This document shows, piece after piece, positions 21,521-42,929 of a stretch of DNA of 64,000 bases. The DNA is taken from positions 11,932 to 75,931 of the forward strand of contig JACPFC010000016.1 in the NCBI GenBank assembly GCA_016183175.1, in the 5' to 3' direction. Under the pieces are notes generated by a model that was not told the origin of the DNA, did not search any database, and saw only the letters and a list, made by a program, of their open reading frames with translations. Every line of letters starts with the position of its first letter. Positions within the stretch are counted from its first letter, which is position 1. This DNA is from Deltaproteobacteria bacterium (GTDB lineage: Bacteria > UBA10199 > SBBF01). Made by a program: the position numbers and the translations under genes.

Positions 21521-21619
21521 TCCGGCTTTGCCGGTGATTTGCGCGGGGTTTGGGGCCATTTGAGGCCCGAAATCCATGATGCGAGTAGCCACAAACGGGC
21601 CGAAAGGGCCCCAAGTATT
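21521..21619. repeat. R3 ~100-bp conserved leader element, copy a (abuts the fliQ ATG)
   Basis: ccggctttgccggtg..gcggggtttggggccatttgaggcccgaaa.ccatgatgcgagtagccacaaacgggccgaaagggccccaagtattATG; near-identical copy at 42831-42929. Confidence 0.8.
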
Positions 21620-21886
21620 ATGGAATCCTACGCCATAGCCGTGGGCAAACAGGCCCTCTTTCTGGTTCTCATCCTTGCCGCGCCGCCGGTTTTGACCGCG
21701 ATGGTCGTCGGCCTTTTTGTCAGCCTCATTCAGGCCACCACCCAGATTCAGGAGCAGACGCTGACCTTTGTCCCCAAGATGGTCGGGGTGGTGATTGTGC
21801 TGGCCCTCTTCGGCCCGCTGGGGATGGCGGAGCTGGTGACCTTTACGAAGACGTTGCTTGAGACTTTTCCGGACTTTATTCGATAG
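21620..21886 (+). CDS. fliQ: FliQ/SctS export-gate protein
   Basis: 89 aa MESYAIAVGKQALFLVLILAAPPVLTAMVVGLFVSLIQATTQIQEQTLTFVPK... is canonical FliQ; the listed ORF starts upstream at 21539 inside repeat R3. Confidence 0.85.
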   Translation: MESYAIAVGKQALFLVLILAAPPVLTAMVVGLFVSLIQATTQIQEQTLTFVPKMVGVVIVLALFGPLGMAELVTFTKTLLETFPDFIR

Positions 21887-21904
21887 TCAAAAGTCGGAAG
21901 TCAA

Positions 21905-21965
21905 AAGTTAAAAAATCCCCCCACTCCCCCCTTTGACAAAGGGGGGGAAGGGGGGATTTGACCTT
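21905..21965. repeat. R2 nested G/C hairpin element, copy a (between fliQ and fliR)
   Basis: aaaaatcccccc ac tccccccTTTGacaaaGGGGGGGaa ggggggattt. Confidence 0.7.
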
Positions 21966-21974
21966 TGACCCCTT

Positions 21975-22790
21975 ATGACGCAATTCGCCGAACAGCTCGG
22001 AATCCGCATTGACCTCTATTCAGCGCTGATCATCGCCGGCCTTATTTTCACCCGCCTGTTCGTGATGTTCCAGCTGACCCCCTTTTTGGGAGGGCGCGCC
22101 ATTCCGGGGCGTGCCCGAATTGTCTTAAGTCTTACCCTGACCCTGTTTCTTTATCCGCTCCTGGTGCCGCCGCTGATCGACCAGCTCCCCGAAAACAAGG
22201 GGCTGATCATCGCCCTTTTTTTCAAGGAGATTTTTTTCGGCTTTTCGCTGGGGCTGGTGACCACCATGGTTTTCTACGCCCTCGAGGCGGCGGGGAGGGT
22301 GGTGGATCATCAGAGAGGAGGGGGCAACGCCGAAATTTTCCTGCCTCAACTGGGGCAGGTCTCGATTTTCGGCCTTTACAATTTCTGGCTCGCTGTGGCT
22401 TTTTTTCTGGCCATCGGCGGCCACCGCTTGTTTCTGAAGGCGGTTTTTTCGAGCTTCGAAACGGTTCCCCTTCTTGACTTTCCCGCCCTCGCCCCCGGTT
22501 TTTCCCCCTTTCTTGAACTGATTGTCCGACTCTCCGGCGATGTGCTGATCATCGCCATGCAGTTGGCCGCGCCGGTGATTATCGCCGTTTTGCTGGTCGA
22601 TCTGGTTTTGGGGATCGCCAACAAGATGGCCCCGCAGATCAATGTCTTTGAACTCGGCTTCGCGGTGAAAGGCTACATCGCGCCGGTGATGCTCTATGTC
22701 TCCGTGCTCATTTTGGTGACCCAGATGGAAAAGATCATGGAAGGGATGGTAAAGTCGGTCTACCAACTCTCGGCAATCTTTGGGCGGTAG
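21975..22790 (+). CDS. fliR: FliR/SctT export-gate protein
   Basis: Polytopic membrane protein; IIAGLIFTRLFVMFQLTPFLGG...; conserved position after fliQ. Confidence 0.8.
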   Translation: MTQFAEQLGIRIDLYSALIIAGLIFTRLFVMFQLTPFLGGRAIPGRARIVLSLTLTLFLYPLLVPPLIDQLPENKGLIIALFFKEIFFGFSLGLVTTMVFYALEAAGRVVDHQRGGGNAEIFLPQLGQVSIFGLYNFWLAVAFFLAIGGHRLFLKAVFSSFETVPLLDFPALAPGFSPFLELIVRLSGDVLIIAMQLAAPVIIAVLLVDLVLGIANKMAPQINVFELGFAVKGYIAPVMLYVSVLILVTQMEKIMEGMVKSVYQLSAIFGR

Positions 22791-22816
22791 CCCCAAAGGG
22801 GCCCCTTCGGGGGCAA
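22790..22816. terminator. Bidirectional terminator-like hairpins between convergent fliR and vapC
   Basis: gccccaaaggggc and cccttcggggg. Confidence 0.35.
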
Positions 22817-40396: not shown

Positions 40397-40401
40397 AAGT
40401 A

Positions 40402-40722
40402 GTGTCTCATATCCGAGACATAGATGTCAATCGTAAAACCTGCGGTCATACATTGCATACATTGTTGGAAAACATGGGGTCAAGCTTTACATTATTTAGG
40501 AACGCAGAAAAATCAGCCGATGAAGGAGGATACGTCGTTTATATTCCGGCTTTACCTGGATGCGTGACCCAGGGCGATACCTTCGAGGAAGCTCAACGAA
40601 TGGCGCGCGATGCCGTTAAAGGTTACCTGGAGGTATTAAAGGAAGAGCACTCTTCGGAGCATTCTCAAGATGGCCGACATCAGTGTGGAAGAATTCCGTC
40701 GGCTTCTTGGTCATTGATATAA
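40402..40722 (+). CDS. HicB-like antitoxin (UPF0150)
   Basis: YVVYIPALPGCVTQGDTFEEAQRMARDAVKGYLEVLKEE is the HicB signature; no adjacent HicA. Confidence 0.5.
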   Translation: MSHIRDIDVNRKTCGHTLHTLLENMGSSFTLFRNAEKSADEGGYVVYIPALPGCVTQGDTFEEAQRMARDAVKGYLEVLKEEHSSEHSQDGRHQCGRIPSASWSLI

Positions 40723-42309
40723 AGGGCCGGGGCCAGTTGCTTCGGATTTCAGATTTACCCTCTTATAATACATAAAATCCATCGGAATGAGAGGAAACGG
40801 TTTCAGTTTCTCCTTCACCAGCACATTTTGCATCGGGATGAAAAGGGGAATGATGACCGCTTCCTCTTCCAGAAGCATTTTTTGCGCCTTGTCATATACG
40901 GCCTTGCGCTTTTGTTCATCCTTTTCGACGGACCCTTGCGCAATCAGGCTGTCGAACTCGGCGCTTTTCCAGTGCGTATGGTTGTTGCCCGAGGTGGAGG
41001 TGAAGAGATTCATAAAATTGTCCGGGTCGGGATAGTCGGCCCCCCAGCCGAGGCGAAAGAGGCCGGGGGGATCGGTTTTTAAGAGTGAGAGGTAGCTTTT
41101 CCATTCCTGGTTGTCGAGGTTCACGTCAATTCCCAGATTTTTTTTCCATTGCGCCTGCGCCCATTCGGCGATTTTTTTGTTCACGGGGTCCGAATTGAAG
41201 GTCAGCGTGAATTGCAAACGACGCGGGTCCTGTCCCAAAAGTTCCCGCGCCTTTTCGGGATCGAATTTCAATCCGATCCCCTCCTCAAACCCGAACATCC
41301 CCGGCGGAATCCACGAATCGACCGGCTGTTCGCCCCCTTTGAGAATATTCGGGATCTCCCGCTTGTCGAGGCTCATGGCCAAAGCCCGACGAACGCGGGG
41401 ATCGTCAAAGGGCTTCTTTGTTATGTTGAATCCATAATAATACCCGCGCAGTTTGGGGACGCTCATCAAGTCCGGACTGTTCTTATAATATGGAAGGGCC
41501 ACCGGCGGAGGGCCGGCGATATCCAAAAGATTCTGCTCGTAGAGGGAAAGGCTGGTTGCAGGGTCGCTGACAAGAAAAATCGTCAGGCGGTCAAACGATG
41601 GTTGTGGGTTTCCTCCATAATGAGGGTTTACTCCCAGTTTCAGCCGGTATTCATGCCACCATTCTTCAAGCACAAACGGCCCGCAGGTGACGATATTTTC
41701 CGGGTCGGTCCACCGGCGCTGTTTTTCCACGATGTCTTGTCTCAAGGGATAAGTTACCATAAAGGTGGTGATGGCCGGAAAAAAGACAATCGGCTGATTC
41801 AGCCGCACCCTTAACGTCAGATCGTCAATCACTTCGATCCCTACCCGATTTTCGTCTTTGAGTTTCCCGCGGTTGAATTCCCTTGCGCCGATGATGTCGA
41901 AAAGAAAATAGGCGTACTCCGCGGCGGTTTCCGGTTTGAGAAGCCTCAACCACGAATAACGGAAATCCCGGGCCGTCACCGGTTTTCCATCCGACCACCG
42001 GTAATTGGGGTCGAGATGAAAGACATACGTTTTTCCTTCCTCCCTGATTTCCCAGCTTTTTGCCGCCGCCGGGATCGGGTTTAAGTTTTGATCAAACTGC
42101 GTTAAGCCCTCCATCAGCTGATTGAGAATCTGATAGCTTACATTGTCGGTGGCGAGGTTCCAATCAAGCGTCGGCGGTTCGGTGGAGAGGGAAATTCGGA
42201 TTTCTTTTTGTAGATCGTAAATGGCGGATCGTGGATCGTGGGTGGAACAATTGAATAAAATGACCGTGAGCAGGCTTGAGAGAACCACCCGGTTCAACAT
42301 GAGGTTCAT
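40711..42309 (-). CDS. Peptide ABC transporter substrate-binding protein (family 5, DppA/OppA-like)
   Basis: Lipoprotein-type signal LTVILFNCS; SBP_bac_5-like layout. Confidence 0.85.
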   Translation of the reverse strand: MNLMLNRVVLSSLLTVILFNCSTHDPRSAIYDLQKEIRISLSTEPPTLDWNLATDNVSYQILNQLMEGLTQFDQNLNPIPAAAKSWEIREEGKTYVFHLDPNYRWSDGKPVTARDFRYSWLRLLKPETAAEYAYFLFDIIGAREFNRGKLKDENRVGIEVIDDLTLRVRLNQPIVFFPAITTFMVTYPLRQDIVEKQRRWTDPENIVTCGPFVLEEWWHEYRLKLGVNPHYGGNPQPSFDRLTIFLVSDPATSLSLYEQNLLDIAGPPPVALPYYKNSPDLMSVPKLRGYYYGFNITKKPFDDPRVRRALAMSLDKREIPNILKGGEQPVDSWIPPGMFGFEEGIGLKFDPEKARELLGQDPRRLQFTLTFNSDPVNKKIAEWAQAQWKKNLGIDVNLDNQEWKSYLSLLKTDPPGLFRLGWGADYPDPDNFMNLFTSTSGNNHTHWKSAEFDSLIAQGSVEKDEQKRKAVYDKAQKMLLEEEAVIIPLFIPMQNVLVKEKLKPFPLIPMDFMYYKRVNLKSEATGPGPLYQ

Positions 42310-42347
42310 TGTACATGGATTAAGACAGGTGCCAAGAAAAGAGAGCG

Positions 42348-42716
42348 CTATTCCAGATGTTTCAGAACGAGATTCCTCTCCGGGTTATGGAGATAGAGCC
42401 CGTCCGGCTGATGGCTGACCGTGTAGGTGCCGTTTAGATAGCGGCACTTGTTTTTGCCGCGGAAGGTGACCGTTTTTTTCTTCTCGCCGGCGCTCCATCT
42501 CCCGGAGCAAAGATGGATGTAGTCCTGGTTGTCGAAGGCGGGAAAAAAGAGAAATTCATTATCGTCCTCAACATAAAGGGTTCCGCGGTCATGCTTGGGG
42601 AGGTCCACGTGAAAGCGGTTGGTCATCAAGTCTCTGATCCTTTCGCCGGAGAAGGCCGGAAGCGCAAACCCAAGGGTTGCAACGAAGAAGAAAATTGGAG
42701 CCAGAAGATTCATCAA
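42348..42716 (-). CDS. Small secreted hypothetical protein
   Basis: Signal peptide MMNLLAPIFFFVATLGFALPAFS. Confidence 0.3.
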   Translation of the reverse strand: MMNLLAPIFFFVATLGFALPAFSGERIRDLMTNRFHVDLPKHDRGTLYVEDDNEFLFFPAFDNQDYIHLCSGRWSAGEKKKTVTFRGKNKCRYLNGTYTVSHQPDGLYLHNPERNLVLKHLE

Positions 42717-42830
42717 TGGTTCATATTGTAGCTAAAATAAGGCCCGATGCAAAGCTTAAAGATTTAAGGAGGGAAAAAAATTCTTTGAATCTTCAACGGC
42801 TTCATGTTAGCGGCCGGATGCAAGCGAGCA

Positions 42831-42929
42831 ATCTGGCTTTGCCAGTTGCGAGCGGGGTTTGGGGCCATGTGAGGCCCGAAACCTCATGACGCGAGTAGCA
42901 ACAAACGGGCCGAACGGGCCCCAAGTAAA
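42831..42929. repeat. R3 ~100-bp conserved leader element, copy b (abuts the pckA ATG)
   Basis: ctggctttgccagttgcgagcggggtttggggccatgtgaggcccgaaacctcatgacgcgagtagcaacaaacgggccgaacgggccccaagtaaaATG. Confidence 0.8.

Follow-up and report, generated by a model that had tools for sequence, protein, structure and literature searches.

The window, a stretch of 64,000 nt (positions 11,932 to 75,931 of contig JACPFC010000016.1, GenBank assembly GCA_016183175.1), belongs to a metagenome-assembled genome (MAG) labelled Deltaproteobacteria at NCBI and holds two copies of a structured repeat of about 110 nt, each abutting the start codon of a different gene. Copy A lies between a fliP/sctR gene and fliQ/sctS, and copy B lies before pckA, which encodes an ATP-dependent phosphoenolpyruvate (PEP) carboxykinase (Table 1). 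The initial annotation, made from the letters of the window and its open reading frames (ORFs), had assigned one copy to the fliP-fliQ gap and the other to the pckA leader, with the shared ATG as the start codon of both genes. The ORFs and family scores agree with this assignment, the pair being SctR/SctS-like as well. Since the gene upstream of copy A scored above the NCBIfam cut-off for SctR and below that for FliP, and its downstream neighbor passed the cut-offs for both FliQ and SctS, the two genes form a type III export-gate pair that may be flagellar or injectisome-like. The surrounding cluster (18876-22790) contains FliM-like, FliN/SctQ-like, FliO-like, FliP/SctR, FliQ/SctS, and FliR/SctT genes, is followed by an opposite-strand gene for a PIN-domain protein and not by flhB, and could be of either kind, flagellar or injectisome-like.

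Global alignment of the two copies (21511-21622 and 42822-42932) gave 94 identical columns of 113 (83%), whereas the 60-nt flanks on either side of both copies aligned at only ~48% identity and are unrelated. Over the shorter limits first proposed (21521-21619 and 42831-42929) identity was 84%, so the strong likeness reported at the outset holds at a value just below the 85 to 90% given for it. We moved the 5' limit ~10 nt further upstream (AAGCAAATCA / AAGCGAGCAA) because these bases form the lower stem of a hairpin, P1. At the 3' end both copies share CCCCAAGTAWWATG, which includes the ATG that opens the FliQ/SctS and PckA ORFs. Two long sub-patterns of the repeat each matched twice in the window and never in 100 shuffles. 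Copies A and B matched a covariance model of the repeat at 131 bits (E = 3.5e-36) and 121.8 bits (E = 2.1e-33), respectively, and no further copy was found in the window with exact and three-mismatch patterns, nhmmer, the covariance model with filters off, or a P1 regular expression.

Searches with nhmmer and the covariance model, which was built from 22 aligned copies, recovered a total of 33 distinct copies in four MAGs labelled Troglogloeales-type Nitrospirota and in three metagenomes. A pattern for the 5' half (GGGGTTTGGGGCC-N4-8-GGCCCGAAA), scanned over one genome per species, detected 18 loci, 17 of them genuine copies in three MAGs: 12 in SBBF01 (MAG 'Nitrospira sp. Bin_29_2_1'), 4 in JACQOY01 ('Deltaproteobacteria bacterium NC_groundwater_1293', which has at least five copies in all), and 1 in SBBT01 (a 'Ca. 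Troglogloeales' MAG). A separate pattern for the 3' half detected 11 metagenome loci. The remaining locus, L017 in a Chthoniobacteraceae MAG, was treated as a chance or partial match because it resembles the repeat only in and around the 28-nt search pattern (nhmmer E = 1e-4) and gave no match to the covariance model at E ≤ 1. By record title, the relatives that carry the repeat are Troglogloeales-type Nitrospirota, and the genome of the window bears a Deltaproteobacteria label. All copies of this family, hereafter family A, occur singly and not in tandem arrays. These searches place the fliQ and pckA leaders in a lineage-specific, interspersed family of ~110-nt repeats. The initial annotation had proposed looking for further copies, covariation, and an Rfam assignment; copies exist elsewhere, covariation is present as described below, and Rfam returned no match at the gathering score anywhere in the window, in agreement with the view that this is not a known riboswitch, so that the refuting conditions set there leave the finding standing. 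Permissive Rfam matches were to unrelated snoRNA and miRNA models (best E values, 2.3 to 7.6), and eight other loci gave tRNAs only.

Family A copies follow a common rule of position. In ~25 of 32 copies, an ATG that lies 4 to 7 nt (mostly 5) after CCCCAA opens a real ORF, and in about half a co-oriented ORF stops 0 to 16 nt before the first bases of the element (AAGCG...). The orientation of the copies is that of the downstream gene. The element therefore occupies either an intercistronic stop-to-start gap, usually rplA|rplJ, rplU|rpmA, nuoA|nuoB, metK|ahcY, fadA|fadB, or fliP|fliQ, or, as in pckA, the last ~110 nt of a 5' untranslated region. Genes downstream include thrS, those for aspartate kinase, a topoisomerase VI A-like protein, a GspE/PilB-type ATPase, and small antitoxin-like proteins, and rplA, rplJ, rpmA (in two genomes), acpP, nuoB, ahcY, fadB, ilvE, and prs; they are mostly housekeeping genes with no pathway in common. 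In tblastn searches for genes common to the window and the other loci, only the element itself matched. Some copies adjoin no ORF (L003a, L008, L012, L015, and L037).

Homologues of PckA and FliP, with their contigs, were used to compare filled and empty sites. The pckA locus of JACQOY01 has the same gene order as the window (SBP_bac_5, a 122-aa ORF, pckA, Metallophos, and Maf) and an 83% identical PckA, but its pckA is preceded by a 122-nt spacer without the element, despite the copies elsewhere in this MAG. In relatives with 73% and 72% identity, the pckA start is preceded by AAGGAGG and AGGAGG. Likewise, the closest fliP|fliQ relative (FliP 88% identical) has a 26-nt spacer (cgcgtcggacaggtcGGAGatttaatATG) with GGAG-N7-ATG and no element, a relative with 80% FliP identity has an unrelated 190-nt spacer, and in one with 72% identity the junction is TAAATG. 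At these genes, relatives that lack the element have canonical Shine-Dalgarno sites (AAGGAGG, AGGAGG, or GGAG). In SBBF01 (FliP 77% identical; locus L037) an element is present at fliP|fliQ, but its P1 sequence differs from that in the window, and behind it come a repeat of the final 45 nt of fliP, REP-like hairpins, and the native AGGA-N10-ATG of fliQ. The ATG of this element opens a frame of only 5 codons. The two fliP ends at this locus differ synonymously in the last two codons and the stop (GTGAGATAA versus GTTCGGTAG). A similar duplication, of 54 nt of the upstream gene, flanks the element at L015, and at both loci the 5' duplicate completes the gene while the 3' duplicate is a relic read from the element's ATG for 5 to 7 codons. 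The different P1 and the 45-nt duplication indicate an independent insertion at the same junction.

From these comparisons, we conclude that the element is not ancestral to pckA and fliQ, that it entered the same fliP|fliQ junction independently, and that, where it adjoins a start codon, it replaced the native Shine-Dalgarno spacer. The ATG appears either to travel with the element or to be the joining point. In pckA, the second ATG of ATGATG may be the original start, which fits an element ATG set before it. Local alignment of 100-nt flanks revealed no regular short target-site duplication; L037 and L015 alone have long duplications, and the ATG or GATGC seen at copies A and B has too few bases to be taken for one. 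Other small hairpin repeats are nested in P1, in the linker or apical loop, and in the 3' strand of several copies. By site, nested palindromes occur in the linker of L012, L014, L015, and L016, in the P1 loop of L013, and near or in the 3' strand of L004 and L014; one of them, TTCACCCCGTGGGATATGCATGTTATCCCACGGGGTAAA, is nested in four copies, all in the same MAG. The idea that the element lands between a native Shine-Dalgarno sequence and its spacer was dropped as unconvincing. By hand count, a 4-mer Shine-Dalgarno core lies within 12 nt 5' of the element in ~7 to 8 of 32 copies, against ~4 to 5 expected.

Table 1. Positions of the repeat copies, their structural parts, and associated features. 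Positions refer to the window unless a locus (L) is named.
Feature	Position	Strand	Description
Copy A (family A)	21511-21622	+	Fills the gap from the fliP/sctR stop TAA (21506-21508) to the fliQ/sctS ATG (21620-21622)
Copy A, hairpin P1	21513-21542	+	GCAAATCAT-CCGGC-TTT-GCCGG-TGATTTGC; fully Watson-Crick in copy A; basis, fold and covariation
Copy A, GGGGT	21545-21549	+	Directly 5' of the long helix
Copy A, long-range helix, 5' strand	21550-21569	+	TTGGGGCC-A-TTT-GA-GGCCCG; hairpin 2 of the initial annotation
Copy A, apical loop	21570-21595	+	Variable A/T-rich linker, then conserved GCGAGTAGCCACAAA; basis, alignment
Copy A, long-range helix, 3' strand	21596-21614	+	CGGGCC-GA-AAG-GGCCCCAA; hairpin 3 of the initial annotation
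Copy A, tail	21615-21622	+	GTATT, then ATG, the start codon of fliQ/sctS
fliQ/sctS	21620-21886	+	88 aa; NCBIfam fliQ 89.8 bits (cut-off 88.9), SctS 78.6 bits (cut-off 76.5)
Copy B	42822-42932	+	In the pckA 5' untranslated region; upstream gene 42348-42716 on the opposite strand (divergent)
Copy B, hairpin P1	42824-42853	+	GC-GA-GCAA-T-CTGGC-TTT-GCCAG-TTGC-GA-GC; has tandem G.A
Copy B, long-range helix, 5' strand	42859-42878	+	TTGGGGCC-A-TGT-GA-GGCCCG
Copy B, long-range helix, 3' strand	42906-42924	+	CGGGCC-GA-ACG-GGCCCCAA
Copy B, tail	42925-42932	+	GTAAA, then ATG; a second ATG directly after (ATGATGCAG)
pckA (ATP-dependent PEP carboxykinase)	42930-44489	+	519 aa; PF01293; copy B adjoins its start
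Duplication at L037	2196-2240 and 2356-2400		45 nt of the fliP 3' end
Duplication at L015	~4116-4062 and ~3917-3868	-	54 nt of the upstream gene's 3' end, repeated after the element
Family B copies	L037 663-758; L012 1100-1186; L009 3690-3775; L006 1111-1197		P1 with a different 3' half
Family B copies	L016 1618-1707; L011 1754-1880; L018 7470-7555 and 7610-7637	-	P1 with a different 3' half
Family C and further P1-bearing type	L006 3241-3326, 3894-3979, and ~4290-4420		
Family C and further P1-bearing type	L011 7290-7390	-	
Antisense terminator-like site	42921-42907; L002 5127-5113	-	GGGCC..GGCCC hairpin, then GTTTGTTGCT
102-nt direct repeat	4161-4262 and 49729-49830		Unrelated to family A
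C-run/G-run hairpin	21913-21960, 26216-26252, 46013-46049, 46048-46084		AAATCCCCCC..CCCCCCTTTGACAAAGGGGGGG
Palindromic octamer arrays	16035-16115, 25318-25406, 47567-47647, 53734-53806		GTGCCCGG-type octamers around a GTAAACAC core
18-nt tandem repeat	29236-29307		4 units of CCCCCCAGGGCGGGTCGC

RNAalifold applied to the 22 aligned copies predicted hairpin P1 and one long-range helix and not the three hairpins of the initial annotation. All three hairpins can be drawn and P1 is supported by covariation, but the other two are better explained as the two strands of the long-range helix. In the whole fold, 96.8% of cells were paired and 12 of 27 pairs had changes on both sides, which none of 500 shuffles reached; in slid controls, paired cells fell to 56% or less. 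P1, which contains a tandem G.A and a bulged U in most copies, covaried at columns 19-31 (UA12/CG6/GC3/AU1), 15-34 (CG10/AU8), and 14-36 (CG13/GC4/UA1), and a compensatory change in P1 is seen within the window itself (CCGGC/GCCGG in copy A versus CTGGC/GCCAG in copy B). The long-range helix pairs UUGGGGCC-A-UNU-GA-GGCCCG with CGGGCC-GA-AN'G-GGCCCCAA over ~19 bp (8 bp, a bulged A, U.G/N-N'/U-A, a tandem G.A, and 6 bp), encloses an apical loop of ~26 to 30 nt that contains GCGAGUAGCAACAAAC, and closes 5 nt before the AUG. Within it, the variable base of AUNUGA covaries with that of GAAN'G (columns 61-115, UA10/CG9/GC2), and the two window copies again differ by a compensatory change, from U-A to G-C (ATTTGA/GAAAG in copy A versus ATGTGA/GAACG in copy B). 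Four pairs of the long-range helix (columns 61-115 and three more) had double changes, compared to none in the two local hairpins, and the long-range fold was lower in energy than the local hairpins in all 22 copies, by 1 to 14 kcal/mol. Because GGCC is self-complementary, the local hairpins may also form, as alternative states.

The U.G wobble was kept in 21 of 22 copies, and this conservation, together with the tandem G.A, places the structure, whether RNA or single-stranded DNA, on the strand that is sense for the downstream gene. The GGGG between the two structures (G37-G40) was invariant in the 22 aligned copies and the T that follows (T41) was present in at least 90%; GGGGT may possibly act as a split Shine-Dalgarno sequence or as an alternative partner for CCCC. 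Besides GGGGU, the strongly conserved unpaired bases are AUNUGA and GCGAGUAGC. We found no convincing fit of the element to integron attC R'/R'' boxes or to the cores of self-cleaving ribozymes (hammerhead CUGANGA..GAAA, twister, pistol, hatchet, and HDV-like), and the Rfam ribozyme models gave no match. Neither window copy has a sense-strand terminator-like site, defined as a GC-rich hairpin followed by a U-run. A site of this kind occurs on the antisense strand of copy B and at L002 (Table 1), and the element might also stop antisense transcription.

The reading that we favor, with a probability of roughly 0.6, is that family A is a co-transcribed leader cassette, and not a riboswitch, that is mobile or spread by recombination and takes the place of the native ribosome-binding spacer. 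The family would have reached many unrelated genes by transposition or by recombinational copy-and-paste. Most likely transcribed as part of the mRNA, the sense strand of the element would fold into P1 and the long-range helix and serve as a portable leader and translation-initiation context, and probably also as a processing or stability module; such a leader role would allow insertions between cistrons to be tolerated. Of the alternatives offered in the initial annotation, a mobile, leader-bearing element is supported by the 33 copies, by presence and absence at orthologous loci, by independent insertion at one junction, and by the nested insertions. A shared cis-regulatory RNA or riboswitch acting as a gene-specific regulator is not supported, given the unrelated downstream genes and the sister-genome orthologues without the element; the element appears to be no ligand- or pathway-specific regulator, although it may have a general RNA-level role.

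Initiation at the element's AUG could proceed in one of two ways: the helix may bring GGGG(U), as a split Shine-Dalgarno sequence, next to the AUG, or ribosomes may use the A/U-rich tail after a structural clamp. Split ribosome-binding sites are found in phage T4 genes 38 and 25, where a hairpin brings a Shine-Dalgarno-like sequence to a functional distance from the AUG, and family A resembles them in that GGGG(U) adjoins the 5' side of the helix and the AUG follows 5 nt after its 3' end. Since GGGGU matches the anti-Shine-Dalgarno sequence weakly and GGGGGTTT also occurs in a sister family (family C, described below) that has its own AAGGAGGTG after the helix, we advance the split site as a hypothesis only. 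A helix of ~19 bp with internal mismatches, about the length of RNase III substrates, is also a plausible RNase III-type processing site.

Several observations weigh against the leader-cassette reading. No transposase was found, within loci of 2 to 10 kb around the matches and with no search aimed at its gene, and most copies lack a flanking duplication, so that the word mobile rests on distribution alone; terminal inverted repeats are also absent from all aligned copies, whose ends (AAGCGAAC... and ...GGCCCCAA-N5-ATG) are not complementary. We infer co-transcription and RNA-level function from the fold and its position, and because G.T and G.A pairs also form in single-stranded DNA hairpins, the same fold could serve mobility at the DNA level. 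The strong conservation of unpaired bases suggests that a specific partner recognizes them, and a cassette that is purely selfish would need no such partner. Family A has no canonical Shine-Dalgarno sequence at -5 to -12, where it carries GGCCCCAA-N5, and its sole purine-rich stretch, GAARGGGG, lies within the 3' strand of the helix, which ends at -6. Unpaired probabilities predicted for the AUG vary by copy and average 0.58, an only moderate accessibility, and the value of 0.01 for the fliQ copy amounts to a paired AUG. Finally, all genomes are MAGs or metagenome contigs, and the copy number per genome and some junctions may be affected by assembly. In the fliQ copy only, the linker UCCAUGAU (21573-21581) is complementary to AUUAUGGA around the start codon (21615-21624), a modelled pairing that could mask the start.

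The same conserved features can be read as a shared cis-acting RNA site that is bound by one global trans-acting factor, such as an RNA-binding protein, an RNase (e.g., RNase III), a small RNA, or the ribosome, so that housekeeping cistrons would be co-controlled or processed together and the element kept by selection and not as a passenger. This explanation, which we consider unlikely but give some weight, would account for the invariant GGGG and its T, the invariant G-A tandem mismatches in the helix and GCGAGTAGC in the apical loop, the strong covariation with a conserved U.G wobble, and the fixed 5 nt between helix end and AUG. P1 is also common to at least three other families with different 3' halves in one MAG, as a common recognition site would be, and rplU|rpmA carries the element in two genomes with considerably different L27 proteins. 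It is less easily reconciled with the ordinary Shine-Dalgarno spacers at orthologous pckA and fliQ sites in close relatives, the unrelated downstream genes, the nested insertions that break P1, the apical loop, and the 3' strand, the copies that adjoin no ORF, and the lack of an Rfam family match. A rather more doubtful explanation confines function to DNA, with the element as a REPIN- or PATE-like nonautonomous transposon whose single-stranded hairpins are recognized by a tyrosine transposase (Y1, RAYT/IS200 type) and whose position at start codons reflects surviving insertions. The arms TTGGGGCC..GGCCCG and CGGGCC..GGCCCCAA do flank a spacer as an imperfect inverted repeat, in the manner of a REP doublet, the spacer contains GTAG, the hairpins have bulged bases and a strand-specific structure, the hosts are rich in other small palindromic repeats, and presence varies among relatives. 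However, REP and REPIN sequences are neither tied to the orientation of the downstream gene nor end a fixed 5 nt before an ATG, the GTAG is not adjacent to the palindrome, the 5' flanks have no conserved target tetranucleotide, and random insertion followed by selection would hardly leave most copies with a spacing of 5 nt.

A mobile promoter, like Neisseria REP2, in which an outward-reading promoter drives the downstream gene, is improbable. Inspection by eye shows TTGGGG-N17-TAnnnT (e.g., TAAAAT, TACAAT, or TATATT) in roughly half of the aligned copies; transcription from it would begin close to GCGAG, and the 3' strand would remain as a small hairpin whose loop contains GAAGG. A consensus scan, though, detected no sense-strand sigma-70 promoter in either window copy or in two other copies. 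Both window copies have TCCATG or CCTCAT at the would-be -10 box, and in four copies a 40-nt hairpin insertion separates the putative -35 and -10 boxes. Moreover, roughly half of the copies sit within operons, immediately behind a stop codon, and the covariation of the long-range helix needs both strands in one molecule. The initial suggestion that the element bears a promoter is thus not borne out, also because one of the two window copies lies inside an operon. A sigma-54 promoter (TGGC..TTGC in P1) was rejected by eye since its spacing does not fit. A simple local duplication or a shared coding sequence for an N-terminal extension or a small peptide has next to no chance of being correct. 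In both copies, no stop codon interrupts the 3' half in the frame of the ATG (..DASS[H/N]KRAERAPS[I/K]M), and a TTG-started ORF of 115 aa (21539-21886) runs into fliQ, but a 1-nt indel puts the 5' halves of the window copies in different frames, linker lengths vary, insertions are nested in the element, and L27 starts at the ATG of the element (MAHKKAGGS). The frame shifts and the number of copies, 33 in several genomes, refute both forms of this explanation.

Among known systems, the closest described analogue of the leader cassette that we favor is REP2 of Neisseria meningitidis, with IR-A of Borrelia, and the resemblance is one of architecture. According to a review (Delihas 2011, PMC3184786; Parkhill 2000; Morelle 2003; Dunn 1994), REP2 and Borrelia IR-A/IR-B are interspersed repeats of ~120 to 150 bp. 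They are described there as lacking terminal inverted repeats, having two stem-loops near the 5' end, lying directly upstream of ORFs with a ribosome-binding site and ATG at their end, and being present in a few dozen gene-oriented copies per genome of unknown origin and mode of spread, and REP2 as carrying a promoter as well as a ribosome-binding site and marking co-regulated contact-induced genes (PMC3184786). Family A shares the lack of terminal inverted repeats, the internal stem-loops, the gene-oriented position directly upstream of ORFs, and the ATG at the end. In contrast, it has neither a consensus promoter nor a canonical ribosome-binding site, a long-range helix that closes at -6 forms its second structure, it is often intraoperonic right after a stop codon, and its genes are unrelated housekeeping ones. 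In the same review, MIRUs (Supply 1997, via PMC3184786) are 40- to 100-bp units, often in tandem, that lie in intergenic sites within operons, form part of polycistronic mRNA, and are absent from the homologous site of related species, with small ORFs that overlap the flanking stop and start codons and suggest translational coupling. The operon-internal, gene-oriented position of family A and the contact of its ends with neighboring stop and start codons are similar, whereas family A has no conserved reading frame (given its 1-nt indel and variable linker), occurs as single copies, and has a covarying RNA-type fold.

Correia/NEMIS elements of Neisseria and ERIC elements of Yersinia and enterobacteria are also ~100 to 150 bp long and co-transcribed, and their long mRNA hairpins alter processing by RNase III or RNase E and expression (PMC10969869, PMC3184786). 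They are miniature inverted-repeat transposable elements with terminal inverted repeats, TA target duplications, and insertion in either orientation, whereas family A lacks both terminal inverted repeats and a regular short duplication, keeps to one orientation, and stays at a set distance from the start codon; a further likeness is in the multiple copies and in the filled and empty sites between related genomes (pckA and fliP|fliQ). REP, BIME, and REPIN sequences, mobilized by RAYT transposases (PMC2817692, PMC3733652), are GC-rich imperfect palindromes whose inverted arms give two small hairpins or one long one, kept by compensatory changes, and are abundant in intergenic regions, including within operons. 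Family A shares this double-palindrome geometry. REP sequences, however, are 20 to 40 nt long, typically lie 3' of genes, and bear GTAG or CGTC as a tag right at one of their ends, whereas in family A the GTAG sits in the apical loop, 8 to 9 nt from the 3' arm, and there are an extra P1 hairpin, strict gene-sense orientation, and a start-codon tail. The core strings of the element were not found in the literature searched, in which a paper on Manganitrophaceae genomics makes no mention of such repeats.

P1 (CGAAGRATCNGGCTTKGCCNGTYCTGAG) is common to other element families of SBBF01 that have different 3' halves and match the model more weakly. Family B (~86 nt) has a 3' half that ends in GCGGGAAGGTATAnAATG, a canonical Shine-Dalgarno sequence able to pair with an upstream CCUUC, and is found at fliM|fliN, before flhB/sctU-like and cysteine-desulfurase-like genes, and, in two cases, at the 5' end of a tRNA gene, one of these being a tandem pair. 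Family C consists of P1, GGGGGTTTGGGGGAGGCCAGCGGCCAGTCCCCC, and ATTATAAAAGGAGGTG, ends in AAGGAGGTG, and occurs at thrS|infC and infC|rpmI. A further P1-bearing type precedes rplT, so that thrS-infC-rpmI-rplT has a P1-type cassette at every junction. Unlike family A, families B and C carry GGAAGG or AAGGAGG. The modularity of P1 argues for a common recognition or mobilization module joined to interchangeable start-region modules. A bolder proposal, which we put forward as speculative and doubtful in this combined form, is that these repeats are a new type of mobile cassette whose ends are joined at stop and start codons and which replaces, deletes, or duplicates the segment between them (as at L015 and L037), and at the same time that the helix and GGGG(U) position the 30S subunit without a Shine-Dalgarno spacer. 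The element would then be a portable, structure-based initiation module within a P1-sharing superfamily (families A, B, C, and more) that fills almost every junction of some operons, such as thrS-infC-rpmI-rplT in SBBF01.

If the favored reading is correct, then in a whole clade of Nitrospirota, the order to which the manganese-oxidizing Ca. Manganitrophus belongs, a structured repeat has come to occupy the ribosome-binding region of many housekeeping cistrons. For translation, this would raise the question of how organisms that elsewhere rely on AGGAGG initiate where a stable ~19-bp helix ends at -6 and a canonical Shine-Dalgarno sequence is missing. For repeat biology, family A would offer a well-defined, covariation-supported case of the poorly understood REP2-like class, and its filled and empty sites, like the two insertions flanked by long duplications, set limits on the way in which such elements spread. 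The element also matters for annotation, as spurious ORFs and N-terminal extensions run through it, the TTG-started 115-aa ORF at fliQ being one example.

The window contains other repeats (Table 1). An unrelated 102-nt direct repeat, whose two copies are 89% identical, has three possible hairpins and GGAG/AGGG 11 nt before its end, and its second copy ends exactly with the ATG (49830) of a 135-aa ORF; this may be a further family that abuts start codons. A C-run/G-run hairpin occurs four times, one of which fills the fliQ|fliR spacer just downstream of copy A. Palindromic arrays of octamers are present at four sites, and an 18-nt unit is repeated in tandem at one, where the repeat search recorded the four units as three overlapping 36-nt copies.

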